Notes under the pieces: model-generated
Told to the model about the DNA's origin: nothing
Database searches by the model: none
What the model saw: the letters and a program-made list of their open reading frames with translations, nothing else
Made by a program: the position numbers and the translations under genes
Assembly (NCBI GenBank): GCA_964408535.1
Contig: CAYOZZ010000381.1
Location: 1 to 51,297, forward strand
Length of the DNA stretch: 51,297 nt
DNA from: an uncultured Bacteroidales bacterium
Lineage (GTDB): Bacteria > Bacteroidota > Bacteroidia > Bacteroidales > JAADJA01
Reading direction: 5' to 3'
Part shown: one piece after another, positions 1,738-26,461 of the stretch
Position numbering within the stretch: position 1 is the stretch's first letter
How the letters are laid out: each line of letters begins with the position of its first letter

Positions 1738-1738
1738 T

Positions 1739-2606: not shown

Positions 2607-2614
2607 TATATTTG
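2607..2614 (+). promoter_or_regulatory. Bacteroidota-type -7 promoter box TATATTTG upstream of the sugar-nucleotide block
   Basis: Matches the TAnnTTTG consensus. A TTTG lies at 2586-2589, about 17 nt upstream. The first gene starts at 2722. Confidence 0.45.
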
Positions 2615-2721
2615 CAACCTGTTATATGCAAGTTCATTGTTAGTTATTTTATTGAGTTATAGTTTATTATGAGTCGTTTAAAGTTGCGGGTAAATAAACA
2701 AAACCAAAACGAAAAGATATT

Positions 2722-3690: not shown

Positions 3691-3709
3691 CTGTTTAAAT
3701 TAATACGGA

Positions 3710-4303
3710 ATGGAAAAGAAATATTTTGTCCACGAAAGTTCTTATGTTGATGATAACGTGGAACTCGGTGAAGGGACTAAAGTCTGGCATTTTTCTCACG
3801 TACAAAGCGGTACTAAAATAGGGAAAAACTGCTCGCTGGGTCAAAGTGTAAATGTTGGAAACAATGTTACTATTGGCGATGGTGTTAAAATTCAGAATAA
3901 TGTTTCGGTTTACGAAGGCGTCGAGCTGGAAGATTATGTTTTTTGCGGCCCATCAATGGTTTTTACCAATGTGATGAATCCGCGCAGCGAATTTCCTCAA
4001 AGAGGAAGTGAGTTCTATCTGAAAACATTAATAAAGAAAAGCGCCTCGCTTGGTGCTAATTCAACAATCGTCTGCGGAAATACAGTCGGGAAATATGCTT
4101 TTGTAGGTGCCGGAACAGTCGTTATTAAGGATGTGCCCGATTATGCTCTTGTTGTTGGAAATCCTGCACGTCAAATCGGATGGGTATGTGCCTGCGGAAC
4201 CAAATTGTCATTAACTACGGACCCCGATTCCAAAGAGACGGCAAAATGTCCTAAATGTGGCAGAGAATATAAAAAAGAAGGTAACAAAGTAGAACAAATT
4301 TAA
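3710..4303 (+). CDS. Left-handed beta-helix (hexapeptide) N-acetyltransferase, WbpD-like, with a C-terminal 4-Cys extension
   Basis: 197 aa. Hexapeptide repeats ([29 protein letters not shown]...). C-terminal CAC-x19-CPKC. Confidence 0.85.
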
Positions 4304-6753: not shown

Positions 6754-6754
6754 T

Positions 6755-7780
6755 ATGAAAATTCTTGTTACCGGCGGAACGGGTTATATAGGTTCTCACA
6801 CTGTTGTTGAGTTACAGCAAAGCGGATACGAGGTTGTTATCATTGACAATCTGTCGAATTCTTATGCAAGTGTGGTTGATAATATTGAAAAAATCACCGG
6901 TGTTAGACCCGGATTTGAAGAGTTTGACCTTACTGATTCAGGCAAAACGGCAGATTTTTTTAAAAAACATGATGATATTGCCGGAGTTATTCATTTTGCA
7001 GCTTTGAAGGCGGTCGGCGAATCGGTTGAAAAACCGCTTCTATATTACAGAAATAATCTTAATTCATTGATAAACATACTGGATGGAATGGCTTCTGCCG
7101 GAGTTGAAAATATTGTTTTTTCATCATCCTGTACGGTTTACGGCCAGCCCGACGAACTTCCGGTTACAGAAAAAGCTCCTATTAAAAAAGCCTGGTCGCC
7201 CTACGCAAATACTAAACAAATAGCCGAAGAAATTATTGAGTTTACATCGAAAGTTAAAAACATTAAAGGTATTCTCCTGAGGTATTTTAATCCTATCGGT
7301 GCACATAATTCCGCATTAATAGGAGAGTTGCCCATTGGGGTTCCGAATAATCTTGTGCCGTTCATAACTCAGACGGCAATTGGGAAAAGAGAAATGTTGC
7401 GTGTTTTCGGTGATGATTACGATACTCCTGACGGAACGGCTATACGTGATTATATTCACGTTGTTGACCTTGCAAAAGCGCACGTAATCGCTATTAACAG
7501 GATGCTCGAAGGTAAAAGCAAATCCATGGTCGAGATGTTTAACCTCGGAACGGGAAACGGTTTTTCGGTTCTTGAAGTGATAAATTCCTTTGAAAAAGTA
7601 ACCGGTGTTAAACTGAATTATAAAATTGTTGAAAGAAGACCGGGTGATATTGAAAAGGTATGGGCGGATACTACTTTTGCAAATGAGGAACTTGGCTGGA
7701 AAGCCGAAAAAGGTATTGACGAGATGATGCTTTCGGCCTGGAATTGGGAGAAAGCACTGAATGAGCGGGCAAAAGATTAA
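6755..7780 (+). CDS. galE: UDP-glucose (or UDP-GlcNAc) 4-epimerase
   Basis: 341 aa. Motifs MKILVTGGTGYIGSH, YANTK (YxxxK) and a C-terminal GalE-like region. It starts 2 nt after the preceding stop. Confidence 0.9.
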   Translation: MKILVTGGTGYIGSHTVVELQQSGYEVVIIDNLSNSYASVVDNIEKITGVRPGFEEFDLTDSGKTADFFKKHDDIAGVIHFAALKAVGESVEKPLLYYRNNLNSLINILDGMASAGVENIVFSSSCTVYGQPDELPVTEKAPIKKAWSPYANTKQIAEEIIEFTSKVKNIKGILLRYFNPIGAHNSALIGELPIGVPNNLVPFITQTAIGKREMLRVFGDDYDTPDGTAIRDYIHVVDLAKAHVIAINRMLEGKSKSMVEMFNLGTGNGFSVLEVINSFEKVTGVKLNYKIVERRPGDIEKVWADTTFANEELGWKAEKGIDEMMLSAWNWEKALNERAKD

Positions 7781-7864
7781 TATTCGGATACCGACAGGAT
7801 TTATATAAATAGTGAATTATAACTTTACTGTTGTTTTAACGTTGGCTGAATAAATAATTTACAA

Positions 7865-8932
7865 TTGAAAAGTATTTTAATCACCGGAGGTGCCGGATTT
7901 ATCGGCTCACATGTTGTCAGGTTATTTGTTAATAAATATCCCGATTATCAAATTGTTAATCTTGATAAACTTACTTATGCCGGAAATCTTGAGAACCTTA
8001 AAGATGTTGAAGACAAACCAAACTACGAATTTGTAAGAGGTGATATTGTTGACGGTGATTTCATCGGGGAGCTTTTTGGTAAATACAATTTTGACGGTGT
8101 AATTCATCTTGCTGCCGAATCGCATGTTGACAGGTCAATCTCCAATCCTATGGAGTTTATCTATACTAATATTGTCGGAACCGTCAATCTGCTGAATGCG
8201 GCAAAGTCAATCTGGAAAGATAATTTCGAAGGGAAAAAGTTCTACCATATTTCGACCGATGAGGTTTACGGCTCTCTCGGCGAAACGGGTATGTTTACCG
8301 AGGCTACTCCGTACGACCCCCACAGTCCGTATTCGGCTTCAAAGGCAAGCTCAGACCATTTGGTAAGGGCATACCACGATACTTATGGATTACCGGTTGT
8401 AATTTCCAACTGCTCAAATAATTACGGGTCATTTCAATTCCCTGAAAAGCTGATACCGCTTTTCATCAATAACATTAGAAATAATAAACCGCTACCTGTG
8501 TACGGCAAAGGAATTAATGTCAGAGACTGGCTCTTTGTCGAAGATCATGCTGCTGCCATTGATATCATTTTCCATAAAGGCAAAACAGGTGAAACCTATA
8601 ACATTGGCGGTAACAACGAATGGAAAAATATTGATCTCATTAAAAAGATGTGCGAGATTATGGACAGAAAGCTAAACCGTAAACCCGGAACATCTGAAAA
8701 ACTGATTACCTATGTTAAAGACAGGGCAGGTCATGATTTGAGATACGCAATTGATTCGTCAAAACTGCAAAAAGAGTTGGGCTGGAAGCCGTCTCTGAAA
8801 TTCGAAGAAGGTCTTGAAAAGACTATTGACTGGTACCTTGAGAATGAGGAATGGATGAAAAACGTAACCGGCGGCGGTTATCTGAAGTACTACGAAGAGC
8901 AGTATGAAAAAAGGGGAAAGCAGCAACAATAA
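7865..8932 (+). CDS. rfbB: dTDP-glucose 4,6-dehydratase
   Basis: 355 aa. Motifs ILITGGAGFIGSH, HISTDEVYG and YSASKASSDH. TTG start; there is no in-frame ATG upstream of the Rossmann motif. Confidence 0.9.
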   Translation: MKSILITGGAGFIGSHVVRLFVNKYPDYQIVNLDKLTYAGNLENLKDVEDKPNYEFVRGDIVDGDFIGELFGKYNFDGVIHLAAESHVDRSISNPMEFIYTNIVGTVNLLNAAKSIWKDNFEGKKFYHISTDEVYGSLGETGMFTEATPYDPHSPYSASKASSDHLVRAYHDTYGLPVVISNCSNNYGSFQFPEKLIPLFINNIRNNKPLPVYGKGINVRDWLFVEDHAAAIDIIFHKGKTGETYNIGGNNEWKNIDLIKKMCEIMDRKLNRKPGTSEKLITYVKDRAGHDLRYAIDSSKLQKELGWKPSLKFEEGLEKTIDWYLENEEWMKNVTGGGYLKYYEEQYEKRGKQQQ

Positions 8933-9028
8933 CAGAAAATTTGAATCCGGCAATTTAACCTTTTCTTTATTAATTCTATTTTTTTAAATACCTTTGTGCT
9001 TTCATTCTTCCTGCGGAGAGAAATCATT

Positions 9029-9364
9029 ATGATTAAACAAAACAGATATATTGACATAATTACTAACAAGCTAAGATTTAACAAGTTAGTCAAAAATGCA
9101 TATCTTTTCGGCAGTTATGCCTACGGAAAGCCTGATGCTGATAGTGATATTGATTTGTTGATTATTCTAAACAGGGATGGTTTTTTATCTAAATATGAAG
9201 AAAGAATTGATTACAGAATGAATATTGCCAAATCCCTTTATGACGTTAATAAAGATATTGCGATTGATATACTGGTTTATACAAAGGATGAATGGGAAAA
9301 AATATTACAAACAGGCAGCTCGTTTCACAATGAGATAGCCGATAATTTTGTAAAGATAATTTAA
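9029..9364 (+). CDS. Minimal nucleotidyltransferase (MNT) domain protein with no HEPN partner
   Basis: The ATG at 9029 gives 111 aa. Pol-beta-type motif LFGSYAYGKPDADSDIDLLI. The track start at 8996 is a GTG extension. Confidence 0.75.
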   Translation: MIKQNRYIDIITNKLRFNKLVKNAYLFGSYAYGKPDADSDIDLLIILNRDGFLSKYEERIDYRMNIAKSLYDVNKDIAIDILVYTKDEWEKILQTGSSFHNEIADNFVKII

Positions 9365-9409
9365 AAATTAAAGAGGTAATATTAATATCAATATTTTGAT
9401 TTTTTCCTG

Positions 9410-9417
9410 TATTTTTG
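9410..9417 (+). promoter_or_regulatory. -7 promoter box TATTTTTG upstream of the carboxylase alpha-subunit gene
   Basis: Matches TAnnTTTG and predicts a leader of roughly 100 nt. Confidence 0.35.
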
Positions 9418-9456
9418 TTCGGATAAAAATACTTTGGAAATGATATTATAGCTAAA

Positions 9457-9500
9457 CCCGAAACCCGTATTTGTCCCTATAGTGATAGTACGGATTCGGG
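9457..9500 (+). promoter_or_regulatory. Leader hairpin upstream of the carboxylase alpha-subunit gene
   Basis: CCCGAA/TTCGGG plus CCGTA/TACGG, separated by a small internal loop. The 19-nt apical loop contains CTAT-AGTG-ATAG. A T5 run starts 12 nt downstream, which is poor geometry for an intrinsic terminator. Confidence 0.3.
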
Positions 9501-9525
9501 TAAACGTGTTTTTAAAAACAAAAAT

Positions 9526-11529
9526 ATGAGACTTTTCAACAAAATATTAATTGCAAACCGTGGAGAGATAGCCGTAAGGGTTATCAGGTCGGCACAAAAA
9601 CTCGGGATAGATACTGTTGCCGTATATTCGGTTGCGGATGAGGATGCTTTACACGTTGAGATGGCTGACGAATCTGTCTGTCTTGGTGAAAGCATTGAGC
9701 TTAGCGACACCTATTTAAATATTGAGAAAATCATCAATATTGCAAAACGTTTGGAATGTGACGCCATTCATCCCGGGTACGGTTTTTTAGCGGAAAATCC
9801 CGACTTTGTTGCTGCCTGCGACAAAGAAAACATAACCTTTATCGGACCGCATACCCGCGCCATAAAACTTATGGGTAACAAAATAGAATCAAGGGAATTT
9901 GTTAAAAACCTTGACATACCTATGACTGCGGGTGTTACAGGAACGACCGAAGAGCTTATTAAGGCTGCAGAAAATATCCCGCTGCCTCTGCTTGTAAAAG
10001 CTGCTGCCGGTGGCGGAGGTAAAGGAATGCGGATAGTACACAATCTTGACGAACTTGCCGAAACAATCGAAAGTACGAGCCGTGAAGCTAAATCCTATTT
10101 CGGTGACGGGACGGTTTTTGTCGAGAAATATGTTGAAGAACCTCGTCATATTGAAATCCAGGTTATTGGCGATAATTTCGGAAATGTGGTTCATCTTTTT
10201 GAAAGGGAGTGTTCCATTCAACGGCGTTATCAAAAGATAATCGAAGAATCTCCCTCTCCGACGCTAACACCTGAAGTCAGAATGAAGATGGGTGAAGCTG
10301 CCGTGAAGATATCCAAAGCCATTGAATACAACAATGCCGGAACGGTTGAATTTCTTGTTGACAAGGATTTGAACTTCTATTTTCTCGAAATGAATACCCG
10401 CGTTCAGGTCGAACACCCTGTTACCGAAATGGTTACGGGTGTTGATATCGTTAAAGAGCAGATACTTGTTGCGGCAGGAAACAGACTTTCTTTAAATCAG
10501 GATGAACTTTCGCAAAACGGACATGCAATTGAGTGCCGGATTTATGCCGAAGACCCGGCAAATAATTTCCTGCCGTCACCCGGAAAGATGTCATTTTATC
10601 ACGAGCCTGAAGGGAAAAGAATCAGAATAGATACGGGTATCGGCGAAGCTACGACAATCGAAAGTTTTTATGACCCTATGATTGCCAAACTCATTGTATG
10701 GTGCAACGACAGGGAAAGCGCAAGGAAAAAAATGATAACGGCATTAAAAAATTATGCCGTTCACGGAATAAAAACGAACATCTCATATCTGCAACAACTG
10801 TTACGGCACAATGCTTATATCTCGAACAAAATCACTACAAAATACTGCGATGAGCATACCGGTGATATCTTGAAGCAGATTGAAAAGGAAAAAGAATCCG
10901 TACCCCGGCACTATCCGGTTATTGCGTATTCCATTTACAGTATTGCAAAAGATTATCTTGAAGCCGGCGACGATTTGAGTATCTGGAAACAGATAGGTTA
11001 CTGGCGTGATATCCCTGAATTTACCGTTTCGTTTGAAGATGAACAGATACCTGTAAAATTTAATAACGGTAAGGGCGGGTTGTTCGTTTTTGATGTGGCA
11101 GGGACAAAAACGGATGTGATTTTCGAATCAATGGAATATGGAATCATTAATCTGAAAATTGATGATGAGGTGCGAACCTTTTATATTTCGGATGATGACA
11201 AGGGTAACGGCTTTGTCAGCTATGACGGTTTTATGTTCGATATACGCAGGAATGATATATTAGTACAGGAAGATGTTTTCGGGAGCCTCGAAACCGGTGG
11301 CGGTAACGGACAGATTGTATCCCCGATGCCCGGAAAAGTAATCAAGATAAATGTAAGCGAGGGTGAGCAGGTTAAAAAGGGTGACGTATTGCTGATTGTT
11401 GAAGCGATGAAGATGGAGAACAATATTGTTTCACCGAGGGACGGTATGGTAGAGAGTGTAAATGTTGCGGCAGGCGATATGGTGGACGGAAGTACGGAGT
11501 TGGTTATTTTACAAAACACAGATAGTTAG
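9526..11529 (+). CDS. Biotin-dependent acyl-CoA carboxylase alpha subunit (biotin carboxylase + BCCP); probably methylcrotonyl-CoA carboxylase alpha
   Basis: 667 aa. ATP-grasp biotin carboxylase motifs (KILIANRGEIAVRVIR, GGGGKGMR, EMNTRVQVEHPVTE) and a C-terminal biotinyl motif EAMKMEN. The MCC assignment rests on the nearby MCC-beta and hydratase genes. Confidence 0.9.
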   Translation: MRLFNKILIANRGEIAVRVIRSAQKLGIDTVAVYSVADEDALHVEMADESVCLGESIELSDTYLNIEKIINIAKRLECDAIHPGYGFLAENPDFVAACDKENITFIGPHTRAIKLMGNKIESREFVKNLDIPMTAGVTGTTEELIKAAENIPLPLLVKAAAGGGGKGMRIVHNLDELAETIESTSREAKSYFGDGTVFVEKYVEEPRHIEIQVIGDNFGNVVHLFERECSIQRRYQKIIEESPSPTLTPEVRMKMGEAAVKISKAIEYNNAGTVEFLVDKDLNFYFLEMNTRVQVEHPVTEMVTGVDIVKEQILVAAGNRLSLNQDELSQNGHAIECRIYAEDPANNFLPSPGKMSFYHEPEGKRIRIDTGIGEATTIESFYDPMIAKLIVWCNDRESARKKMITALKNYAVHGIKTNISYLQQLLRHNAYISNKITTKYCDEHTGDILKQIEKEKESVPRHYPVIAYSIYSIAKDYLEAGDDLSIWKQIGYWRDIPEFTVSFEDEQIPVKFNNGKGGLFVFDVAGTKTDVIFESMEYGIINLKIDDEVRTFYISDDDKGNGFVSYDGFMFDIRRNDILVQEDVFGSLETGGGNGQIVSPMPGKVIKINVSEGEQVKKGDVLLIVEAMKMENNIVSPRDGMVESVNVAAGDMVDGSTELVILQNTDS

Positions 11530-11594
11530 AAACAGATATTTTTTCTGATTTTGAAACTTTAATTTTTGACTAATCCATTTAATAAAACAGAACA

Positions 11595-12785
11595 ATGAAA
11601 AATATTGATACATTCGATTTTAACGGCAAGAAGGTACTTGTAAGAGTTGATTTTAACGTACCTTTGAATGATAAGTTTGAGATAACTGACCCGACAAGGA
11701 TTGATGCGGCGATTCCGACAATAAAAAAGATACTTTCGGGTGGCGGAGCAGCTGTTCTTATGTCTCATCTCGGCAGACCGAAAAACGGACCGGAAGAAAA
11801 GTTTTCGTTAAAACATGTAGTTCCGTATCTTTCCGGCAAGCTGGGTGTTGATGTAAAGTTTGCCGATGATTGTATTGGTGAATCTGCAAAGGAACTTGCA
11901 GCAGGGTTAAAGCCCGGAGAGGTTTTATTGCTTGAAAATCTGCGATTTTACAAGGAAGAGACAAAAGGCGATGTGGAATTTGCCCGCAAACTTTCCGAAC
12001 TCGGTGATGTTTATATGAACGATGCTTTCGGTACGGCCCACCGTGCTCACGCTTCAACGGCTATTATCGCACGGTTTTTCCCTGAAGAAAAACTGTTCGG
12101 ATATATAATGCAGAATGAGGTGAAAAACATTGATAAGGTTCTGCACGACGCAAACAGACCGTTCACTGCTATTCTCGGTGGTGCAAAGGTTTCCGGTAAA
12201 ATAGAGATAATCAATAACCTGCTCGATAAGGTTGATAATCTGCTTATCGGCGGAGGTATGATGTTTACTTTTATTAAGGCTTTCGGCGGTAATGTCGGCA
12301 ATTCGCTGATTGAGGACGAATTGCTTGACCTTGCTAAAAGTACGGTTGAAAAAGCAAAGCAGATGGGTGTTAATCTTTATATCCCTGTCGATACGGTTAT
12401 TGCCGATAATTTCAGTAATGATGCAAACTTTAAGGAATCGGATGTGAATAATATTCCAGACGGCTGGATGGGACTGGATATCGGGACTGATACGGTTAAG
12501 AAGTTCACCGAAGTAATTGAAAACTCAAAAACTATTCTGTGGAACGGGCCGATGGGGGTTTTTGAAATGGAGAATTTTGCCGCCGGAACAAAAGCCATTG
12601 CAGAAGCAGTGGCACAAGCAACGGAAAAAGGTGCTTTCTCATTAATCGGAGGTGGCGACTCTGTTGCTGCTATCAATAAATACGGACTGAAGGACAAGGT
12701 CAGCTATGTTTCGACGGGTGGCGGGGCAATGCTTGAGTATATCGAGGGTAAAGAGCTTCCCGGAGTGAAAGCAATAAAAGAGTAA
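11595..12785 (+). CDS. pgk: Phosphoglycerate kinase
   Basis: 396 aa. Motifs RVDFNVP, SHLGRPK and GGGDS...STGGGA. Confidence 0.95.
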
Positions 12786-12879: not shown

Positions 12880-13725
12880 ATGGAGTTATATAAAATAGAA
12901 ACAGGGAATTTTAAACTTGACGGTGGTGCCATGTTCGGGGTGGTTCCAAAGGTGATTTGGAACGATGTTTACCCATCTGACGAAAACAATCTTTGTAATT
13001 GGGCTATGCGCTGTCTGCTTGTGGTTGACGGTGACAGAAAGATATTGATAGACAACGGGATAGGCACAAAACAGGATGAGAAATTTCTTCGTCATTATCA
13101 TCTTAACGGTGATGATTCCCTGGAGAAGTCACTCGCACGTGCCGGTTTTTCAGCCGATGATATAACCGATATGGTTATCACACATTTGCATTTCGACCAC
13201 TGCGGCGGAAGCATAAAAAAAACAGGAGAGAACAAATATGAACCGGCTTTTAAAAATGCTACCTATTGGATTGGTAAAGAGCAGTGGGAGTGGGCTACCC
13301 ATCCGAACCGGCGCGAGAAAGCCTCTTTCCTGAAAGAGAATATCTTTCCGATTGAAGAGAGCGGACAACTCAAACTTGTTGAGAATGAGGGAGAACTGTT
13401 TCCAAATTTCGACGTCAGGTTTTTCAATGGTCACACGGGAGGACAGCTAATCCCGTACATCAATTATAATGGAAGAACAATTGTTTTTATGGCCGACCTG
13501 CTTCCGTCAACAGCCCATATTCCGTTGCCATACATTATGGCTTACGACACGCGTCCGTTAATAACTTTGAAGGAAAAAGAGGAGTTTTTCGACGAGGCAA
13601 TAAAAAATAATTACATACTCTTTTTCGAGCATGATATTTATTACGAATGCTGTACACTGAAGATGACGGAAAAAGGCGCTCGAGCCGATAAAACTTTCAG
13701 GTTAAAAGATATTATTGAAAGCTAA
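12880..13725 (+). CDS. MBL-fold metallo-hydrolase
   Basis: HxHxDH motif (THLHFDHCGG). The ATG at 12880 (MELYKIETG...) is preferred over the TTG at 12844. Confidence 0.8.
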   Translation: MELYKIETGNFKLDGGAMFGVVPKVIWNDVYPSDENNLCNWAMRCLLVVDGDRKILIDNGIGTKQDEKFLRHYHLNGDDSLEKSLARAGFSADDITDMVITHLHFDHCGGSIKKTGENKYEPAFKNATYWIGKEQWEWATHPNRREKASFLKENIFPIEESGQLKLVENEGELFPNFDVRFFNGHTGGQLIPYINYNGRTIVFMADLLPSTAHIPLPYIMAYDTRPLITLKEKEEFFDEAIKNNYILFFEHDIYYECCTLKMTEKGARADKTFRLKDIIES

Positions 13726-14390
13726 GATTCTGATGAATTCGTGCTTTGGCTTGCGGCAAACTTTCCCACAAGCATTGCAACGATAATTGCAATATATAAC
13801 TGTCCGGAAATACTGATTAAAATACTGAGTGACTTTGCAATAGGTACTTGCGGTGTCACATCGCCATACCCCAGTGTTGACATTGTAACAAATGTAAAGT
13901 AGAGAGTATCCTGAAAATTCACTTTATCGGTATTGGCAAAATTTAATGCGTTGGGGTCATAAAGATTAAGTATCGTGACGAGCATTGTAAACATTAATCC
14001 CAGTAGAAGGTAAGCATTAACCGATTCCAGAATCACATTTGAATTGACCTCTTTACTTCTTGCAATTTGAAAAATCAGACGAATGACAATAAGCTGGAAA
14101 AAAATAACATTTATCATAGATGATACATATGACAATATGTCTAATGTAAATATATCGGCAATCCATTCGGTTATCAATGCTAATGTTGCAGCAAAAAACA
14201 TTCGCTTTCTCACTTTCGGTGTTAATGCAAAGATTGAGAGGAAAAATATTATCGAAAACAGAAGTATATTGATTGTTTTATGTATTGCAAGAGGCCATAA
14301 CGGCACAAGAAATGTCAACGCAAAAGAAAAAACCAACAACAGAATATTATTTACAGTTAAATCCGACTTTGAAAGATTCCTGTTTAACAT
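13722..14390 (-). CDS. Potassium channel (TxGYGD selectivity filter)
   Basis: MSTLGYGDVTP pore signature with flanking TM helices. The ATG at 14390 (MLNRNLSK...) is preferred, because the longer track ORF (to 14633) would overlap the start of the neighbouring carboxyltransferase gene. Its stop overlaps the stop of the convergent MBL gene. Confidence 0.8.
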   Translation of the reverse strand: MLNRNLSKSDLTVNNILLLVFSFALTFLVPLWPLAIHKTINILLFSIIFFLSIFALTPKVRKRMFFAATLALITEWIADIFTLDILSYVSSMINVIFFQLIVIRLIFQIARSKEVNSNVILESVNAYLLLGLMFTMLVTILNLYDPNALNFANTDKVNFQDTLYFTFVTMSTLGYGDVTPQVPIAKSLSILISISGQLYIAIIVAMLVGKFAASQSTNSSES

Positions 14391-14408
14391 TATTTTATTT
14401 TTTGCCGA

Positions 14409-14416
14409 CAAATATA
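14409..14416 (-). promoter_or_regulatory. -7 promoter box (TATATTTG on the minus strand) for the K+ channel gene
   Basis: The reverse complement of CAAATATA is TATATTTG. It lies about 20 nt upstream of the ATG at 14390. Confidence 0.4.
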
Positions 14417-14427
14417 AGATGTTTATG

Positions 14428-14435
14428 TAAATTTG
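14428..14435 (+). promoter_or_regulatory. -7 promoter box TAAATTTG for the carboxyltransferase gene
   Basis: Matches TAnnTTTG, 41 nt upstream of the GTG start at 14476. Divergent from the K+ channel promoter. Confidence 0.4.
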
Positions 14436-14475
14436 GCAATTATTTTTCAAGACATAATAATTAATAACATAGATC

Positions 14476-16083
14476 GTGTATAGAATAGAATCCAAAATTG
14501 ACACAAATTCGGCAGAATTCAGAAAAAATAAAGAGGAATTCTCAAAAGTATTGAAAGAGTTTAAATCTGTCCTTGAGAGCGTAAAACACGGAGCTTCCGA
14601 AAAGGCTGTCAGCAGGCATAAAAAGAGAAACAAATTGCTTGCCCGCGAAAGGATTGACCTTTTAATTGACCCTAATACGCCGTTTTTGGAATTGTCTCCG
14701 ATGGCGGCATACGGGTATTATAACAACCAGTTTCCGTCGGCTGGAATTATTACGGGGATTGGTGTTGTTCACGGTAAGGAGGTTATGATTGTTGCCAATG
14801 ATGCAACCGTGAAAGGAGGCACCTATGTGAAAGAGACAATAAAGAAACATGTCAGGGCGCAGCAGATTGCAATGGAGAACAGGCTCCCGTCAATTTATAT
14901 GGTTGACTCCGGTGGTATATTCCTTCCCGAACAGGCTGAGGTTTTTGCAGACCGGGATAATTTCGGGAGATTTTTTTACAATCAGGCACGGCTTTCGGCA
15001 ATGGGAATTCCGCAGATTGCTATCGTGATGGGTTCCTGTACTGCCGGTGGTGCTTATGTTCCGGCTATGAGCGACGAAACAATTATTGTAAAGAAACAGG
15101 GAACAATTTTCATTGGCGGGCCTCCTCTTGTAAAAGCTGCAACAGGTGAGGTTGTCACTCCCGAAGAGCTTGGAGGTGCCGACGTACATACTGCCATTTC
15201 GGGTGTGGCCGACCATTATGCCGAGAACGACAGGCATGCTATACAAATCTGCCGTAATATTCTTGAAACAATAGAGCCGAAAGAGAAGCAAATTCTGGAT
15301 ATAGCTCCTGTTGAAGAGCCGTTTTACGACCCTGAGGAACTTTACGGTATCGCTCCGGTTGATTTGCGCAAACCGGTTGATGTTAAAGAGATTATAGCAC
15401 GAATAGTTGACGGCAGCCGCTTTCAGGAGTTCAAGGCAAGATATGCTCCCACCTTGATTACAGGTTTCGCAAGAATTATGGGATATCCTGTCGGAATAAT
15501 AGGTAATAACGGTGTTTTGTTTTCCGAATCGGCTCTGAAAGGTGCTCATTTTGTCGAATTGTGCAGCTCAAGAAATATCCCGATACTGTTTCTGCAGAAT
15601 ATAACCGGATTTATTGTCGGAAAACAGTATGAACACGGAGGTATAGCACGCGACGGAGCCAAATTTGTTCATGCGGTTGCCAATGCGGATGTACCTAAAT
15701 TCACTGTTGTGTTCGGAGGTTCGTTTGGAGCCGGAAATTATGCAATGGCCGGCCGGGCTTATGATCCCAGATTGCTTTTTATGTGGCCGAATGCCAAAAT
15801 CTCGGTTATGGGGGGCGAACAGGCGGCAGGAGTTTTGATACAGGTTAAAGAAGAACAACTGGCTGCACGTGGTCAGGAAATGGACCCCGGTGACCGGGAA
15901 AAACTGAGAAATGAAATACTCGAAAAATATGAGAGAGAGGGTGCTGCATTTTACAGTACGGCACGCTTATGGGATGACGGAATAATTGACCCTGTTGATA
16001 CCCGTAAAATAATTGCTATGGGAATTGCAGCTTCGTTAAACAAGAAATTCCCCGAAACCAAATACGGTGTATTCAGGATGTAA
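14476..16083 (+). CDS. Methylcrotonyl-CoA carboxylase beta subunit (carboxyltransferase)
   Basis: 535 aa. Long colinear similarity to eukaryotic and bacterial MCC-beta ([69 protein letters not shown]). GTG start. Confidence 0.92.
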
Positions 16084-16086
16084 CAC

Positions 16087-16119
16087 AAACCTAACAGGTC
16101 TCCAAGACCTGTTAGGTTT
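16087..16119. repeat. REP-like palindrome copy 1 (AAA-CCTAACAGGTCT-CCA-AGACCTGTTAGG-TTT); also a likely terminator of the carboxyltransferase gene
   Basis: Perfect 12-bp stem extended by A3/T3 and followed by a T run. Starts 4 nt after the stop at 16083. The 27-nt core is identical to 16745-16771. Confidence 0.85.
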
Positions 16120-16126
16120 TAAATGA

Positions 16127-16732
16127 TTGAAAATGAAGAATCAGGAATCTTTTCAACCAGGAGTTATTTATCATCTGTTTAACAGAGGGAACAATCATGA
16201 AAGGATTTTTATTGAGAATAAGAATTATGAGTATTTTTTATTCTTAGCACAAAAATACTTATTGAAAATAAGTAATATCTATGCATATTGTCTGATTCCA
16301 AATCATTTTCATATTTTAGTCGGGATTAAAAGGTTCAAATATTTACCGGAAGAATACAAAACCGGTAGAAAAAAACTACATCAACCATTTTCAAACTTTT
16401 TTAATGCTTATGCAAAAGCTATAAATAAAAAATATGATCGTAGAGGAAGCCTTTTCCAAGAACATCTAAAAAGAAATATAATTGATACTGATGAGTATTT
16501 TAAAAATGTAGTTCTATATATTCATTTGAACTCTAATCATCATAGACTTAACTTAAGTTACGAAAATTATCCTTTTTCGTCATATCCTGATTATGTTAAT
16601 AGAACTGAAAGTTTTATTGACAAGGGTTATGTGATTGATCTATTTGACAATATGGATAATTTTGTTTATTTGCACAAACAAAAGAAAATAAATATGGATT
16701 TATTGGATGATTTAAATGATTTGGATGATTAG
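16127..16732 (+). CDS. REP-associated tyrosine transposase (RAYT; IS200-like Y1 HUH transposase)
   Basis: About 200 aa. Motifs YHLFNRGNN, HUH motif PNHFHILV and Tyr motif VLYIHLNSNHH. Acidic tail DLLDDLNDLDD. The track start is TTG at 16127; ATG at 16133 is an alternative. Confidence 0.8.
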   Translation: MKMKNQESFQPGVIYHLFNRGNNHERIFIENKNYEYFLFLAQKYLLKISNIYAYCLIPNHFHILVGIKRFKYLPEEYKTGRKKLHQPFSNFFNAYAKAINKKYDRRGSLFQEHLKRNIIDTDEYFKNVVLYIHLNSNHHRLNLSYENYPFSSYPDYVNRTESFIDKGYVIDLFDNMDNFVYLHKQKKINMDLLDDLNDLDD

Positions 16733-16741
16733 TTAATTGAG

Positions 16742-16774
16742 AGACCTAACAGGTCTCCAAGACCTGTTAGGTCT
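16742..16774. repeat. REP-like palindrome copy 2 (AGACCTAACAGGTCT-CCA-AGACCTGTTAGGTCT)
   Basis: Perfect 15-bp arms built from four AGACCT/AGGTCT hexamers, so it can fold as one long hairpin or two short ones. Starts 10 nt after the RAYT stop. Confidence 0.85.
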
Positions 16775-16789
16775 GAAAAAGAGGCAAAT

Positions 16790-17578
16790 ATGAAATACAA
16801 AACAATTGAAACAGACCTGAATGATTCTATTGCTACAGTACGGTTAAACAGACCTGAAAAACATAATGCTTTTGATGACCTTATGATTGAGGAACTGACA
16901 AATGTCTTTACCGAGTTAAGCAAAAAGGATGATTTAAGGGTAGTAGTTTTAAGGGGTAAGGGAAAATCGTTTTGTGCCGGTGCCGACCTCAATTATATGA
17001 AAGGCATTGCCAAATACGGCTACAAAGAAAATTTTGAAGATGGCAAAAAGCTGGCTACCCTTTTTAAAACCGTTTATCTGTGTCCTTATCCGACAATTGC
17101 AGTTGTTCATGGTGCAGCTTTCGGTGGTGCCAACGGATTACTTGCTGCCTGCGATATTGTCATTGCCGAAGAAAATACAACCTTTGCCTTCAGCGAGGTA
17201 AAAATCGGTATTTCGCCTGCTACCATTGGTCCCTACGTATTAAAGCGTATCGGTGAATACGGAGGAAAAGAACTGATGATGACAGGTAAACGCTTTAAAG
17301 GTAAAGAAGCGGAACAATTCGGTTTGGTGAACAAATCGGTTACGGAAGATAAAATAGAAGATGTGTTGCAAGAGTTTGTAAAACAATTCCTTACGTCGGC
17401 ACCAAAGGCTGTCGCAGCAACAAAGGCAATGATACAGACTCTCACAAACGATCAAATGACGTTAACCGATGCAATGGATTATACTGCCGATATTATCGCA
17501 AGATTACGGGCTGCCCGCGAAGGGCAGGAGGGAATGGCCGCATTCCTCGAAAAACGTAAACCCGACTGGGTAAAATAA
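16790..17578 (+). CDS. Enoyl-CoA hydratase/isomerase family protein (probable methylglutaconyl-CoA hydratase)
   Basis: 262 aa. Crotonase fold motifs (VVVLRGKGKSFCAGADL, AVVHGAAFGGANGL). The context with MCC subunits suggests the leucine pathway. Confidence 0.85.
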   Translation: MKYKTIETDLNDSIATVRLNRPEKHNAFDDLMIEELTNVFTELSKKDDLRVVVLRGKGKSFCAGADLNYMKGIAKYGYKENFEDGKKLATLFKTVYLCPYPTIAVVHGAAFGGANGLLAACDIVIAEENTTFAFSEVKIGISPATIGPYVLKRIGEYGGKELMMTGKRFKGKEAEQFGLVNKSVTEDKIEDVLQEFVKQFLTSAPKAVAATKAMIQTLTNDQMTLTDAMDYTADIIARLRAAREGQEGMAAFLEKRKPDWVK

Positions 17579-19451: not shown

Positions 19452-21941
19452 GTGGAAAATAATTTTACAGAATTACAACAGGAAGAATCTTTTGATTATA
19501 AAGCGCTGTTTTTTAAACTTTACAGATATTGGTATTTCTTTATTCTTACCATTTTCATTGCGCTGCTGATAGCATTCCTATTTAATAAATATACAAAGCC
19601 CATTTATGAGGTTAAAACCACGGTTTTGATAAATGATACAAAGGGAGGAGAAATGGATGCCCAGGCTTTGATGGGATTCGGGTTTGTGAACAGTCAGCAA
19701 AACGTGGAAAATGAGATTGGGAAATTGCAGTCTTATTCGCTTGTAAATGAGGTTGTAAGAGACCTTGACCTCTATATTTCATATTTCAGAGAAGAAAACT
19801 TTATTACAAAAGAACTCTATAAAGACAACCCTTTCACAATTGTATTTGACTCGGCCCACCTCCAACCCATTAACCTGAAGTTTAAGCTTACTATTCTTAA
19901 CAATAAAACATATACACTTGAGGCTGAAGGGAAAAATATTAAACTGTATAATTATAAAAAATATGAAGTTTTTAAAAGCCCGGGAAAAGAAGATGAAGTC
20001 AATATCTTAATTGACAGTACTTTTGCATTCGGACAAAGAATAATTTCAAAGAATTTCAACTTTAAGGTCGAATTAACTGAGAGCTATAACCCTGAAACAG
20101 ATGGTGATGTAAGTTTCTTCTTCATCTTCAATAACCCGGATAAGCTGACGAAGCAGTTTCAGTCATTTGAAATTGAGCCTATTAAAGAGGAGTCGTCTAT
20201 TCTGAAGATTACTTTGAAAGGAAATAACGTAAATAAATCTATTGATTTCCTGAATAAGCTTACTGAGGTTTATCTTTCCAGAAACCTTGAAAAAAAGAAC
20301 AGAGCTGCTGAGAATACGGTTTCATTTATTAACTCTCAACTTGGCGTTATTTCCGATTCCCTGAATAATGCAGAACAAACATTGCAGGATTTCAGAACTG
20401 ATAATAAGGTTATGGATCTTGATTTTCAGGCAACCCAGGTTTTTGAACAATTGAAAGACCTTGAAAGTGAGAAGGCGATGCTTACTCTTAAAAACAAGTA
20501 CTATCTTACCCTTAAAGAATATATTGAGAAAAACAAAGGGCTTGAGGATGTTCTTATTATTCCTTCATCTCTCGGTATTGATGATCCGTTGTTAAATGAA
20601 TTGACAACACAACTGACAGATGCATATTCCGAAAAGCAGGAAAAACTTCTCTACTCAACAAATAAAAATCCTGCCGTTATTATGCTGAATCAGAAAATAG
20701 AGATGATAGAAGCAACTTTACTTGAAAATTTAAAAAATATCTTAAAAAATTCTCAGATTGCCATTAATGACATTAACAACAGAATTAACGATCTTGAATC
20801 AAGAGTGAAAAATCTCCCTTCAACACAAAGACAACTTCTCGGTATCGAAAGGAAATTTAAGTTAAGCGATAACCTGTACAATTATTTGATGGAAAAACGC
20901 TCGGAAGCGCAGATTACAAAAGCTTCAAATGAGCCTGACAATGAGATAATTGATATTGCAAGGGATGCCGGCGATGATCCTGTTTTCCCGAAAAAGAGTC
21001 TGAACTTTGTGATTGCTATTATTTTGGGAATCGTTTTACCTGTTGTATATATACTTGGGAAAGATTATTTTAATGACAGTATCGTTGAACGGAAAGATGT
21101 CGAAAATATTACCAGCTATCCGATTGTCGGGCATATTATTCACAGTAACAGAGACACGCAGGCTGTTGTTGCCGAATCGCCAAAATCATCTATTGCGGAG
21201 TCATTCCGTTCAATCAGAACAAATTTGCAGTTTTTAGGACAAGGTAAAGACGACAAACAGACGATTCTCATAACTTCGGATATGGTTAGTGCCGGTAAGA
21301 CTTTTACTGCAATAAACCTTGCATCCATTTTTGCTCTTTACGGCAAGAAAACCGTTCTTCTCGGGTTTGACCTGAGAAAACCGAAGATATATAAGGATTT
21401 CGGACTGAAAAATGTTGAAGGTATAAGTTCATACCTTATTAATAAGAGTGAATTTGAAGATATTATCCAGCACTCTCCGATTGAAAATCTTGATGTCATA
21501 ATGGCCGGGCCTGTTCCTCCAAACCCGGCAGAGTTAATAGCTTCAAAGAAGACAGATGAGATGTTTGAAAAAATCAAAGAAAGATATGACTATATCATCC
21601 TTGATACTCCTCCTGTCGGTTTGGTAACGGATGCGTTTCTTCTGATGAAATATACCGACTCGAACATATTTGTCGTAAGACAAAATTATACTAATAAAAA
21701 AGTCTTTTCATCTATTATGGCTGACCTTGAAAAACGTAATCTGAAGAATATCAGTATTCTGATCAATGACGTTAAACTGACCAAGAGTTCTTATGGTTAC
21801 GGATACGGTTACGGATACGGTTACGGCTATGGTTATGGATACGGCTATGGCTATGGTTATGGCTATGGATACGGTTATTACTCCGATGATAAGGCTCAGG
21901 AGAAAGATTCGACAATGAAAAGAATCTTTAAGAATACATAA
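19452..21941 (+). CDS. Wzc/GumC-like chain-length determinant fused to a BY-type tyrosine kinase
   Basis: 829 aa. N-terminal TM + Wzz-like coiled-coil periplasmic region, a second TM, Walker A SAGKTF, Walker B YIILDTPPVG, and a C-terminal Tyr cluster. GTG start, with no upstream in-frame ATG. Confidence 0.9.
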   Translation: MENNFTELQQEESFDYKALFFKLYRYWYFFILTIFIALLIAFLFNKYTKPIYEVKTTVLINDTKGGEMDAQALMGFGFVNSQQNVENEIGKLQSYSLVNEVVRDLDLYISYFREENFITKELYKDNPFTIVFDSAHLQPINLKFKLTILNNKTYTLEAEGKNIKLYNYKKYEVFKSPGKEDEVNILIDSTFAFGQRIISKNFNFKVELTESYNPETDGDVSFFFIFNNPDKLTKQFQSFEIEPIKEESSILKITLKGNNVNKSIDFLNKLTEVYLSRNLEKKNRAAENTVSFINSQLGVISDSLNNAEQTLQDFRTDNKVMDLDFQATQVFEQLKDLESEKAMLTLKNKYYLTLKEYIEKNKGLEDVLIIPSSLGIDDPLLNELTTQLTDAYSEKQEKLLYSTNKNPAVIMLNQKIEMIEATLLENLKNILKNSQIAINDINNRINDLESRVKNLPSTQRQLLGIERKFKLSDNLYNYLMEKRSEAQITKASNEPDNEIIDIARDAGDDPVFPKKSLNFVIAIILGIVLPVVYILGKDYFNDSIVERKDVENITSYPIVGHIIHSNRDTQAVVAESPKSSIAESFRSIRTNLQFLGQGKDDKQTILITSDMVSAGKTFTAINLASIFALYGKKTVLLGFDLRKPKIYKDFGLKNVEGISSYLINKSEFEDIIQHSPIENLDVIMAGPVPPNPAELIASKKTDEMFEKIKERYDYIILDTPPVGLVTDAFLLMKYTDSNIFVVRQNYTNKKVFSSIMADLEKRNLKNISILINDVKLTKSSYGYGYGYGYGYGYGYGYGYGYGYGYGYGYYSDDKAQEKDSTMKRIFKNT
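21792..21881 (+). repeat. In-frame dipeptide repeat (YG)14-YY at the C-terminus of the Wzc-like kinase
   Basis: Thirty consecutive codons alternate TAT/TAC with GGT/GGA/GGC. The longest exact nucleotide period is the 12-nt unit GGTTACGGATAC, repeated about 2.7 times. Confidence 0.95.
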
Positions 21942-24273: not shown

Positions 24274-25434
24274 ATGAAAACAGTAAAATTTGCACTCATA
24301 GCTTTCATCGTTTCATTTGTAACGATAACCGTAAACGCCCAGAATCAGGGTGTGGCAATCAACAGCGACGGCGCACAGGCAGACCAGTCTGCAATGCTTG
24401 ACGTAAAATCTACAACAGGCGGAATCTTAATTCCCCGGATGACACAGACACAGCGTAACAATATCAGCTCTCCGGCAACCGGACTTCTGGTTTATCAGAC
24501 AGACAATACCGACGGTTTTTACTATTATGACGGTGCCGGCTGGAATTACATCGGGGCTCCAGATAATGACTGGACCGTTAACGGCAATGACCTTTACAAC
24601 AATAATTCGGGTAATGTGGGAATAGGCACAAATTCTCCCGGTGCAAAACTTGAGGTTGCCGGACATATCTGGCAGACAGGAACGGGAAACTCTGTTTTTC
24701 TCGGTGAGAGTGCCGGTGCTGCTGATGATCTTAGCGATAATGTTAATGTTTTTGTCGGAAAACAGGCAGGACAGTCGAATACTTCAGGAGAGAATAATGT
24801 TGCTATAGGGATGCAGGCATTATTGGCGAATACTTCAGGTGTAAGAAATATTGCAATAGGCTCGGCGTCATCGTGGTTTAGTAACGGAAGTGGAAATATC
24901 TCAATCGGACATTCTACATCTGCAAACAATCTTGATGGAAGTTATAATACGGTTTTGGGTACGTGGGCTTTTAAAGCGTTTCAACATTCAAGTTATAATA
25001 CTGCATTAGGTTTTAATGCAATCGGCGATTTTCAGGCTATTCCCTGGGCTTTAGGGTATTATTCAGGTGACAGGCTCACAGCAGTCGGCTATGAAGCCGT
25101 GTTCAAAAACCAGGGAGGAGAGAGAAATACAGGTGTCGGATATAAAGCCTTGCACGAAAATGAAGACGGGAATCACAATACTGCTATTGGTTACGGTGCT
25201 TCTGAAAATCTTGACGGATTGGATAATACGACAGCCCTCGGCTATGGAGCAGAACCGACTGCAAGCAACCAGGTTGTGCTGGGTAATGCTAGTGTTACTC
25301 AGGTTAAAACAGCCGGTGCTATTACAATAGGTGGAAGTAATGCTACTACGGAAGCAGGAACTATAAGATTTGACTCCGGGACAGGTCATTTCTATGGGTA
25401 CAACGGAACATCCTGGGTTCAGTTGGATAATTAA
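24274..25434 (+). CDS. Secreted fibre-like repeat protein (YadA-head/Hep_Hag-like NxAxGxxA repeats) lacking any recognisable anchor
   Basis: 386 aa. Signal peptide (...TVNAQ), N-terminal LIPRMTQTQRNNI...GLLVYQTDNTDGFYYYDGAGW, then NVGIGTNSPGAKLEVAG. Many repeats follow (NNVAIGMQA, RNIAIGSAS, YNTVLGTWA, YNTALGFNA, RNTGVGYKA, HNTAIGYGA, NTTALGYGA). The C-terminal GTIRFDSGTGHFYGYNGTSW echoes the N-terminal motif. Confidence 0.75.
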   Translation: MKTVKFALIAFIVSFVTITVNAQNQGVAINSDGAQADQSAMLDVKSTTGGILIPRMTQTQRNNISSPATGLLVYQTDNTDGFYYYDGAGWNYIGAPDNDWTVNGNDLYNNNSGNVGIGTNSPGAKLEVAGHIWQTGTGNSVFLGESAGAADDLSDNVNVFVGKQAGQSNTSGENNVAIGMQALLANTSGVRNIAIGSASSWFSNGSGNISIGHSTSANNLDGSYNTVLGTWAFKAFQHSSYNTALGFNAIGDFQAIPWALGYYSGDRLTAVGYEAVFKNQGGERNTGVGYKALHENEDGNHNTAIGYGASENLDGLDNTTALGYGAEPTASNQVVLGNASVTQVKTAGAITIGGSNATTEAGTIRFDSGTGHFYGYNGTSWVQLDN

Positions 25435-25456: not shown

Positions 25457-25490
25457 AAAACCTGACAGGTCTTCAAGACCTGTCAGGTTT
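25457..25490. repeat. REP-like palindrome copy 3 (variant: AAAA-CCTGACAGGTCT-TCA-AGACCTGTCAGG-TTT); bidirectional terminator-like
   Basis: Same architecture as copies 1 and 2. The A>G change in the left arm is matched by T>C in the right arm. It sits between convergent stops at 25434 (+) and 25496 (-), flanked by A4 and T3. Confidence 0.85.
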
Positions 25491-25495
25491 GATTG

Positions 25496-26461
25496 CTACG
25501 ATTCCCTTCTGTTCAGCAACTGGGCAAATTTTATTAATTCCGACTTTCTGTTTTCGTTTACAGGGATGATTTCAATGAAATCCATTGCCCTGTCAAAATA
25601 TTTTTTCATCTCATTTTCGGTCTCTTCACGAATATTCAGTTCCTCGTAAATTTTTCTAACCTCAGAAATTTTATCGGAATCGTTATTGCCGAAAAGATGG
25701 GTGAGTCTTGTAAGTGTTTCTCCTTCAGCTTTTTCAAAAGCTTTCAGGTAAAGAAATGTTTTTTTATTTGTTGCAATATCACCACCGGTCTGTTTTCCGA
25801 ATTTTTCAATATCGCTGAATACATCCAACAGGTCGTCTTTCAACTGGAAAGCTATCCCGAGATTTTCTCCGAAACGGTACAGCGCTTCACAATATTCACT
25901 GTCAGCACCGGCCAGCATGGCACCGATTTTCAGGCTACCGGCAAGAAGAACGGCGGTTTTTAACCGTATCATCTCAATATAGTCTTTTATTGTGATATTA
26001 TTTTGGGTTTCAAAGTTCATATCATATTGCTGTCCTTCACAAACCTCAATTGCTGTTTTGTTAAAAACGGAAAATACCTCCGACCTGATACTTTCGGGAG
26101 CTTTCATAATGTACTCATAGGCAAGTGCCATCATTGTATCTCCTGAGAGAATGGCAACATTCGTGTTCCATTTTTTATAAACCGTTTCCTCACCTCTGCG
26201 GAGGGGAGCTTCATCCATAATATCATCATGAAGGAGAGTGAAGTTGTGAAAAATCTCAATACCAATTGCCGGATTTATCGCCTGTTCAACATCGCCGCCG
26301 AACATATCGCAGGCCATAAGGCATAAAGCGGGCCTCAGCCTTTTACCTCCAAGTGACAATGTATATGAAATCGGTTCATATAATTCGCCCGGCTTTTTGC
26401 GAAAGTCAATCTCTTTGAAAGTCTCTGCTATTCTTTTTTGGATTTCTTCAATAGTCTGCAT
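25496..26461 (-). CDS. Polyprenyl (short-chain, FPP/GGPP-type) diphosphate synthase
   Basis: 321 aa. First Asp-rich motif LLHDDIMD, second KDDLLD. Phe at position -5 from the first motif suggests a short product; this is an inference. Confidence 0.85.
   Translation of the reverse strand: MQTIEEIQKRIAETFKEIDFRKKPGELYEPISYTLSLGGKRLRPALCLMACDMFGGDVEQAINPAIGIEIFHNFTLLHDDIMDEAPLRRGEETVYKKWNTNVAILSGDTMMALAYEYIMKAPESIRSEVFSVFNKTAIEVCEGQQYDMNFETQNNITIKDYIEMIRLKTAVLLAGSLKIGAMLAGADSEYCEALYRFGENLGIAFQLKDDLLDVFSDIEKFGKQTGGDIATNKKTFLYLKAFEKAEGETLTRLTHLFGNNDSDKISEVRKIYEELNIREETENEMKKYFDRAMDFIEIIPVNENRKSELIKFAQLLNRRES

Follow-up and report, generated by a model that had tools for sequence, protein, structure and literature searches.

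The locus considered here raises the question of whether a small nuclease gene and the palindromes on either side of it represent a domesticated transposase living with its own repeat, an autonomous insertion sequence, or a gene that happens to lie next to host regulatory hairpins. The gene and its two palindromes occupy positions 16087-16774 of contig CAYOZZ010000381.1 (assembly GCA_964408535.1) from an uncultured Bacteroidales bacterium; the whole stretch of 51,297 nucleotides that was analyzed is referred to as the window. A sequence-only reading of this window had proposed a REPtron, that is, a gene for a repetitive extragenic palindromic (REP) sequence-associated tyrosine transposase (RAYT) bracketed by its repeat. 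That proposal is upheld by the anatomy of the gene and hairpins, by the TnpA_REP-like character of the protein and by the recurrence of the hairpin, and the region is probably a REPtron in which a RAYT/TnpA_REP-like gene encoding an HUH-Y1 single-stranded DNA nuclease lies between two copies of its presumed substrate hairpin, with solo copies dispersed elsewhere. Taken alone, the locus is an ordinary REPtron; it is inserted between two genes of leucine catabolism and gives no indication of altering them. Its features, in window coordinates, are as follows.

16133-16732, plus strand: RAYT-like HUH/Y1 gene, 199 aa from ATG, with an alternative TTG start at 16127.
16087-16119, no strand assigned: hairpin copy 1, AAACCTAACAGGTCT-CCA-AGACCTGTTAGGTTT, with a 15-bp stem and a 3-nt loop.
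16742-16774, no strand assigned: hairpin copy 2, AGACCTAACAGGTCT-CCA-AGACCTGTTAGGTCT, with four alternating AGACCT/AGGTCT hexamers.
25458-25490, no strand assigned: hairpin copy 3, a solo dispersed copy, AAACCTGACAGGTCT-TCA-AGACCTGTCAGGTTT.
14476-16083, plus strand: carboxyltransferase gene (PF01039), the upstream neighbor on the left side of the insertion site.
16790-17578, plus strand: enoyl-CoA hydratase gene (PF00378), the downstream neighbor on the right side of the insertion site, whose relatives are named methylglutaconyl-CoA hydratase in their sources.

The anatomy of the locus can be read directly. The 27-mer CCTAACAGGTCTCCAAGACCTGTTAGG is present in exact form at 16090-16116 and 16745-16771, as had been claimed, and both occurrences proved to be the cores of longer hairpins with perfect 15-bp arms, 16087-16101/16105-16119 (AAACCT..AGGTTT) in copy 1 and 16742-16756/16760-16774 (AGACCT..AGGTCT) in copy 2. 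The four alternating hexamers described for copy 2 begin at 16742, 16751, 16760 and 16769. Copy 1 is located 3 nt past the carboxyltransferase stop codon and 13 nt ahead of the RAYT start codon, and copy 2 is located 9 nt past the RAYT stop codon and 15 nt ahead of the hydratase ATG. A scan of the window allowing three mismatches recovered the two flanking 27-mers and a third at 25461-25487, with a shuffle expectation of 0 (n=100). This third copy has 16-bp arms (25458-25473/25475-25490), lies in the 61-nt gap between convergent open reading frames (ORFs) at 24274-25434 (plus strand) and 25496-26461 (minus strand), and differs from the flanking copies by one compensatory pair change, from A-T to G-C. 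As single-stranded DNA, each window copy folds into a single long hairpin with a free energy of -15 to -18 kcal/mol (z -6.6 to -8.8), which no shuffled sequence equals. The insert is also more AT-rich than its surroundings, as had been noticed by eye, the GC content being 25-27% across the RAYT ORF versus 42-49% in the neighboring genes, or 26% for the gene versus 40% for its flanks.

The pair of palindromes might in principle be a chance duplication or an assembly artefact, a view to which the small copy number in the window lends itself, but this explanation is so improbable that it can be set aside. Apart from the shuffle expectation, contig L001 from JGI sample 3300028908 (stretches and contigs retrieved for comparison are cited by such numbers) has the identical arrangement at 99.76% identity to the window, contig L068 from the same sample matches the region around 25461, and the palindrome recurs beyond the flanking pair, both as the third window copy and in at least 240 unrelated stretches elsewhere. 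Given these two contigs, L001 being an independent one, an assembly error is excluded.

The protein is best described as a member of the REP-associated branch of the Y1 HUH nucleases. The HUH and catalytic tyrosine motifs reported for the ORF were both located, as NHFHIL (HUH codons at 16304-16312) and YIHLN (tyrosine codon at 16517-16519), and none of the residues H58, H60 and Y129 varies in either family alignment (28 and 31 sequences). The called product is the 199-aa form starting at ATG, and an exact look-up of the 201-aa product of the TTG start returned no match. The NCBIfam profile NF047646 (REP_Tyr_transpos) matches the window protein with an E-value of 1e-10 over profile positions 5-146 of 146, and a PDB profile search with the family profile gave 4ER8, the E. 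coli TnpA_REP bound to REP, as the top match. When the AlphaFold (AF2) model of the protein (pLDDT 93.8) was compared with known structures by Foldseek, 4ER8 again came first (E 2.8e-7, TM 0.60/0.71), followed by IS608, ISDra2 and IS200 TnpA; the sequence identity to 4ER8 is 16%. As 4ER8 ranks first by both fold and profile, the protein is nearest the REP-associated branch, and its identification as a RAYT and not a canonical IS200 TnpA is retained, with the lack of tnpB and the identical ends in agreement. The family is large: a word-seeded protein search returned 610 clusters (90% identity) at E <= 0.001, the named ones mostly from Bacteroidales or Flavobacteriaceae and several labeled RayT, and an exhaustive profile search returned 1,092 clusters (50% identity) at E <= 1e-30 and 29,173 at E <= 1e-3.

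Beyond the window, the association of hairpin and gene was observed in both directions. A homologue of the window protein (30-61% identity) was found in 16 of the 240 listed stretches that had been retrieved by the hairpin, and in 14 of these 16 the distance from gene to hairpin is no more than about 150 nt, mostly with hairpins on both sides where the contig permits; assuming a single-copy gene, we estimate a chance expectation of about 0.5 stretches. In the reverse test, for which homologues were picked by protein search, a family hairpin was present at the gene ends or no more than about 100 nt from them in all five cases, and on both sides in three, including Flavobacterium mekongense. Genes bracketed by hairpins are present in the window and in L047, L094, L107, L112, L135, L238, L247, L251, L245 and L265. 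The flanked homologue in L112 (64% GC) matches, at 100% identity, a protein from an Anaerolineae metagenome-assembled genome (MAG), with relatives named Thermoflexales and Anaerolineales. This MAG encodes two paralogous RAYTs, P0397 and P0452 (L112 and L265), which are 61% identical; hairpins of the same type, with extended stems and loops of 4 nt, flank both of them. The flanked homologues in Bacteroidota and Anaerolineae extend the hairpin-gene pairing to at least two phyla, at 35% protein identity.

Two of the retrieved stretches deserve separate mention. In L265, a further hairpin copy (1655-1704) is located inside a PMT_2 ORF. In L246 (OZ238266.1, a 2.1-Mb genome), the RAYT homologue P0073 is located between a cas9-like gene (HNH_4/RuvC_III, 1381 aa) and cas1-cas2 (5806-11839), and a family hairpin overlaps its stop codon.

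The hairpins belong to one family with the consensus A-R-ACCT-N-ACAGGT-Y-T, a loop and the complement of the first arm. A scan of a metagenome collection with bases left free at position 7/27 and in the loop matched at least 120 contigs, and a scan of species-representative genomes with a looser pattern matched at least 120 stretches. The metagenome matches listed, which originate from soils, sediments, lakes, digesters and seawater, range from 28 to 69% GC. According to their record titles, 72 of the 120 genome stretches listed belong to Bacteroidota (Flavobacterium, Chryseobacterium, Elizabethkingia, Pedobacter, Rufibacter, Paludibacter, Prevotellaceae and others), 21 to Chloroflexota (Anaerolineae, Caldilinea, Chloroploca, Ardenticatenaceae), 18 to Gammaproteobacteria, mostly giant sulfur bacteria (Thiomargarita, Parabeggiatoa, Halobeggiatoa, Thioploca, Marithrix) with one Methylococcaceae, six to Moduliflexus / 'Bacterium UASB14', and one each to Rhodothermales, KSB1 and Acidobacteriota. 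Closed genomes are among the carriers, for example Pedobacter sp. R-06 (NZ_CP183977.1), Flavobacterium mekongense (CP174374.1), OY763044.2 and OY782858.1. A near-identical hairpin thus occurs in five or more other phyla or candidate phyla of bacteria, an unusual breadth for a REP-type repeat. Many of the carriers outside Bacteroidota are filamentous, namely Beggiatoaceae, Anaerolineae, Caldilinea, Chloroploca and Moduliflexus. Several genomes supply two to four separate stretches among the genome-scan matches listed, and additional hairpins occur about once per 36 kb within the stretches fetched. Tandem arrays of the hairpin, with a period of 48-51 nt and near-identical linkers, were observed in L176 (2527-2956, a Thiomargarita MAG), L262 (12948-13082, an IMG/VR contig) and L055 (2056-2130). 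A CRISPR interpretation of the L176 and L262 arrays was rejected because their linkers are identical, and these are plain 50-nt tandem repeats (tandem amplification).

The fold of the hairpin is maintained by compensatory change. Three stem pairs were left unconstrained in the genome-scan pattern, so the test of covariation at these pairs, made on 133 copies, is unbiased. The results are as follows.

Stem pair 2-32: Watson-Crick in 128 of 133 copies (G-C 66, A-T 50, C-G 9, T-A 3), with 56 expected under independence.
Stem pair 7-27: Watson-Crick in 131 of 133 copies (G-C 68, C-G 36, A-T 25, T-A 2), with 51 expected under independence.
Stem pair 14-20: Watson-Crick in 131 of 133 copies (T-A 100, C-G 31), with 84 expected under independence.

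This near-perfect covariation shows that the hairpin structure is under selection, and the 3' hairpin of L253, which is orthologous to that of the window, likewise differs from it by two compensatory pairs. It had been suggested that copy 2 can adopt either one long hairpin or two short ones. The long form is the one borne out by covariation, whereas hairpins formed within the single arms were rejected, as positions 2 and 14 would form a Watson-Crick pair in 49 of 133 copies versus 55 expected by chance. With respect to the base at position 7 (A, G or C), close relatives have the same hairpin variant, but overall mean identity differs little (46% versus 43%, n=15), which is only suggestive of a link between hairpin variant and protein clade. 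The hairpin has no match in Rfam at E <= 1.

A structure conserved in this way might primarily serve the host as a transcription terminator, an mRNA 3' stabilizer or a protein-binding site, in which case its adjacency to the gene would be uninformative about mobility. Covariation is what such a role would predict, as is the location of the copies: 41% of the hairpins are no more than 20 nt away from an ORF 3' end (ORFs of 120 aa or longer), compared with 3.7% of random positions, a count in which some hairpin variants hold TGA or TAA and can close frames themselves. Secondary roles are also known for E. coli REPs (background cited in PMC6006769). The hairpins are, however, followed by no T-tract and were not called as terminators. 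In particular, the idea that copy 1 doubles as the terminator of the carboxyltransferase gene was not sustained, as a consensus scan of 15500-17500 found 0 terminator-like sites and the hairpins of the family are followed by T-runs of about 0.5 nt on average. Moreover, sequence as well as fold is conserved across phyla in hosts of 28-69% GC, copies occur in frame inside ORFs (long open frames span about 14% of copies) and in the 50-nt arrays, and a tight two-way link to one nuclease family would not be expected of a plain terminator. A primarily regulatory role is therefore unlikely. A secondary regulatory role, for example at transcript ends, is compatible with the REPtron interpretation, since the preference for ORF ends is typical of REPs and leaves room for it.

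Presence and absence of the cassette at the orthologous site were observed directly in a junction series composed of contigs carrying the closest relatives of the downstream hydratase, obtained from the hydratase search.

L256/L257, hydratase 81% identical to that of the window: empty junction, TAAaaaATG.
L254/L255, hydratase 82% identical: one solo hairpin, no gene.
L253 (GCA_029940435.1), hydratase 85% identical: hairpin, the same gene shortened in frame by 207 nt through a deletion of the HUH region, hairpin.
L252, hydratase 91% identical: unrelated 2.5-kb gene between two half-hairpin remnants.
Window, hydratase 100% identical: hairpin, intact gene, hairpin.

The sequence outside the solo hairpin resembles the sequence outside the outer halves of the window hairpins, and by this likeness the cassette is bounded exactly by hairpins. 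Two histories are consistent with the series, namely arrival of the gene at a site that already had a hairpin, or loss of the gene by recombination between the flanking hairpins. No target-site duplication was seen, the empty and filled orthologous sites being too diverged for one to be read. In L252, an FG-GAP/Por_Secre_tail gene on the opposite strand (1383-4000) is located between the remnants (AAACC / ... / CAGGTTTTCAAAACCTGTTAGGTC), and both breakpoints fall within the left arm of the hairpin (AAACC^TAA^CAGG); this may represent a rearrangement at the hairpin and is an anecdote, not evidence. In-frame hairpin copies within the RAYT genes of relatives, just past the HUH motif, are a further sign of hairpin mobility: L047 and L112 show them at the DNA level, and P0257, P0272 and others have peptide repeats such as EDLSGSENLTGR directly after HUH, whereas the window gene has no such insertion. 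The copies spanned by long open frames and the tandem arrays point the same way.

The variable occupancy of this site would also suit an autonomous insertion sequence of the IS200/IS605 type, in which the hairpins are subterminal ends and the whole 0.69-kb unit transposes. Such an interpretation can further call on the HUH/Y1 fold shared with IS608, ISDra2 and IS200 TnpA, and on base composition, as in 15 of 16 loci the GC content of the RAYT ORF is lower than that of the flanks, by 3-17 points. RAYT GC content still follows that of the host, from 26 to 60%, and this points to long residence more than recent arrival. Against transposition of the unit, the ends are identical perfect palindromes and not distinct left and right ends, tnpB is absent, solo hairpins are far in excess of the gene (see the 16 of 240 stretches above), and the structural and profile matches are best to TnpA_REP, above the transposases of insertion sequences. 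Moreover, for every gene cluster examined, the surroundings of the gene stay the same in several assemblies. The RAYT family is nearly missing from plasmids (12 hits in 72,556 plasmids, all distant), and a phage search gave no hit to it. We consider an autonomous insertion sequence very unlikely; the gene, a single copy in the window, behaves as a resident gene and not as a jumping insertion sequence. Carriage by a phage or plasmid was rejected on the same searches, together with the presence of the hairpin in only seven viral contigs.

With the REPtron interpretation preferred, a mechanism can be proposed by analogy. The TnpA_REP enzymes that have been studied bind the folded single-stranded REP, and cut and rejoin it by means of an HUH-bound metal and a tyrosine (PMC3479197; PMC8266576). 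Given its catalytic residues and its fold, the window protein would be expected to carry out the same chemistry on the 33-nt hairpin. It would bind the 33-nt palindrome where single-stranded DNA lets the palindrome extrude into a hairpin, would cut by means of Tyr129 and the metal bound at HUH, and would then rejoin the strands. Hairpin copies would thereby be seeded, duplicated or deleted, mainly past gene ends and now and then in frame inside genes.

Several points weigh against this interpretation of the locus. Binding, cleavage, strand transfer and the strand used would all be as in the enzymes of E. coli, S. maltophilia and Marinomonas (PMC3479197; PMC8266576), that is, they are ascribed to the window protein by analogy. 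In the studied enzymes, strand specificity comes from a GTAG tag, from a bulge or from particular bases of the loop (PMC3479197; PMC8266576). Within 10 nt on either side of 253 hairpins, neither a GT[AG]G tag nor a conserved base was found, and neither a bulge nor a conserved loop was found in the hairpin family, the loop being variable. Features of this kind are used by the studied enzymes for recognition and strand choice, and in a fully symmetric element the choice of cut site is not explained by tag, bulge or loop. As to the protein, its NF047646 score of 41.7 bits is under the curated cutoff of 80. The check with the Pfam Y1_Tnp profile (PF01797) that had been advised gave a match, at E 0.089 and 13.4 bits, that falls short of the cutoff of 23. 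With 22 of 31 family members reaching PF01797 at E <= 0.01, the window protein is a divergent branch of the RAYT/TnpA_REP proteins and not a non-member. The copy in L253 that lacks the HUH region indicates that the gene is dispensable at least there. Finally, the three hairpin copies in the 51-kb window are all that is seen of the copy number in the source genome.

The distribution of the hairpin invites a broader proposal. A perfect palindrome with a variable loop and no tag found presents almost the same substrate on its two strands. Possibly, though we would put it at somewhat less than an even chance, the hairpin and the nuclease represent one ancient or horizontally travelling pair, in which the recognition sequence has been essentially kept in Bacteroidota, Chloroflexota, giant sulfur Gammaproteobacteria, Moduliflexus, KSB1, Acidobacteriota and Rhodothermales, despite divergence of the protein to 35% identity and host GC contents of 28-69%. 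Both strands would then be near-equal substrates, recognition would differ from the strand-specific, tag-guided mode, and the pair would be a counter-example to the view of REPs and of REP doublets forming hairpins (REPINs) as specific to a lineage and passed on by vertical inheritance alone. Among domesticated transposases that coexist with a small repeat of their own, REP/RAYT systems serve as the standard example, and current models of them are built on Proteobacteria, in which the REP is lineage-specific and its GTAG is read strand-specifically. A tag-less symmetric REP that is nearly fixed across phyla would test substrate recognition, cleavage-site choice and horizontal spread, and the conserved 33-mer offers a simple genomic marker as well as a defined oligonucleotide substrate.

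Two further features of the window were noted away from the cassette. A second low-GC stretch (28-33%) at 13900-14650 takes in the end of an ion-channel-like ORF on the minus strand (13722-14633) together with the gap that separates it from the carboxyltransferase gene. An ORF of 829 aa at 19452-21941 (plus strand), located downstream of a Poly_export-type gene, ends in a long run of GY dipeptides (SSYGYGYGYGYGYGYGYGYGYGYGYGYGYYSDD) and may encode a capsule or exopolysaccharide chain-length regulator or a tyrosine kinase with an unusual tyrosine-rich tail.

Among known systems, the E. coli REPtron (TnpA_REP of RAYT group 2, Quentin subclass 2.2; REP and bacterial interspersed mosaic elements; structure 4ER8) shares with the window a single-copy HUH/Y1 gene flanked by dispersed intergenic hairpins and repeats located just past gene ends, and it is the top structural and PDB profile match. 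However, the REPs of E. coli form imperfect palindromes that contain a bulge and depend on a GTAG at the 5' end; they are lineage-specific, and their processing is specific to one strand (PMC8266576), whereas the window hairpin is perfect, symmetric, untagged and common to several phyla.

The insertion sequences of the IS200/IS605 group share the HUH/Y1 fold and the recognition of DNA hairpins. They differ in that the subterminal hairpins of the left and right ends are distinct, tnpB is often present, and identical copies are numerous and common on plasmids, while the window element has identical ends, no tnpB, one conserved location per case examined and solo hairpins in excess.

REPINs are roughly 70-110 nt long. 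The window hairpin shares with them (Bertels and Rainey 2011) two inverted 15-nt half-sites at a 3-nt spacing that form one long hairpin, and so has REPIN geometry in miniature, but it is 33 nt long and its half-sites show no evidence of independent folding. In a part of 10.1101/2022.05.22.493013, REPIN populations are described as lineage-specific and vertically inherited.

In the classification of Quentin et al. 2018 (PMC6006769), subclasses 2.2, 2.4, 2.5, 2.7 and 2.8 are canonically tagged (5' GT[AG]G). Subclass 2.4 (RAYT Group 4 of Bertels) occurs in Cyanobacteria, Bacteroidetes, Chlorobia, Caldilineae and other phyla, and its REPs are GTAG-tagged, long or 'double-foot', and inserted within the tnpA gene, the in-frame insertion between HUH and tyrosine being called unique to this subclass (PMC6006769). 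The window family resembles it in the length of the protein (about 194 aa in subclass 2.4), in the HUH motif NH[IFV]H (NHFH in the window), in a patchy spread across phyla and in the in-gene copies between HUH and tyrosine, which are present in relatives of the window protein. Fully palindromic 'double-foot' REPs are a further likeness, with a similar apical stem in some of them, e.g. GTAGGGACAGGTCGTGACCTGTCC in Paludibacter. In a portion of PMC6006769, the REP entries of subclass 2.4 start with a GT[AG]G-type tag, in contrast to the untagged window hairpin. The WQ motif of subclass 2.4 corresponds to LFQ or LFE in the window family, and for the tyrosine motif YIxNNP of subclass 2.4 the window protein has YIHLNS and its relatives have YIHLNP or YIHNNP, a comparison by motif only. 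Supplementary Table S1 of PMC6006769 lists an identical double-foot REP, GTAGAGACGTTGCATGCAACGTCTCTAC, for CyspE01 (a Cyanothece) and EmolA01. If EmolA01 is an Emticicia, sharing of REPs across phyla may be a wider, unemphasised property of this branch. We take EmolA01 to be Emticicia (Bacteroidetes).

Subclass 2.6 (Bertels Group 5) is mostly found in Bacteroidetes and has atypical untagged structures (PMC6006769). A Bacteroidetes host, the lack of GTAG and flanking structures that recur in the genome are shared with the window locus, and the tyrosine motif YIH[QN]NP resembles the family motif YIHLN(P/S). The structures listed for subclass 2.6 are, however, species-specific and unrelated in sequence to the window hairpin, whereas here one family spans phyla. 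The data set of PMC6006769 required a Pfam E < 0.01, a threshold that the window protein would fail and that 22 of its 31 relatives pass.

The statement in the sequence-only reading that RAYT/REP systems are best documented in Proteobacteria needs qualification, as Bacteroidetes are already covered by subclasses 2.4 and 2.6 (PMC6006769). The distinctness of the hairpin sequence is supported: neither CCTGTCAGG nor CCTGTGAGG is present in the REP table of PMC6006769, including the listed REPs of subclass 2.4. In the searchable full-text literature, 12-13-mers of the hairpin retrieved only eukaryotic primers. Nunvar 2010 makes no mention of Bacteroidetes, Flavobacteria, Cytophaga, Chloroflexi or Beggiatoa, and the genome papers of Thiomargarita and Desulfonema describe other repeats. 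Since RAYTs of Bacteroidetes have already been described, the phylum alone is not the novelty. What is new in comparison with these systems is a tag-less symmetric repeat, nearly invariant across several phyla and a 40-point range of GC content, that is associated with a divergent RAYT clade.

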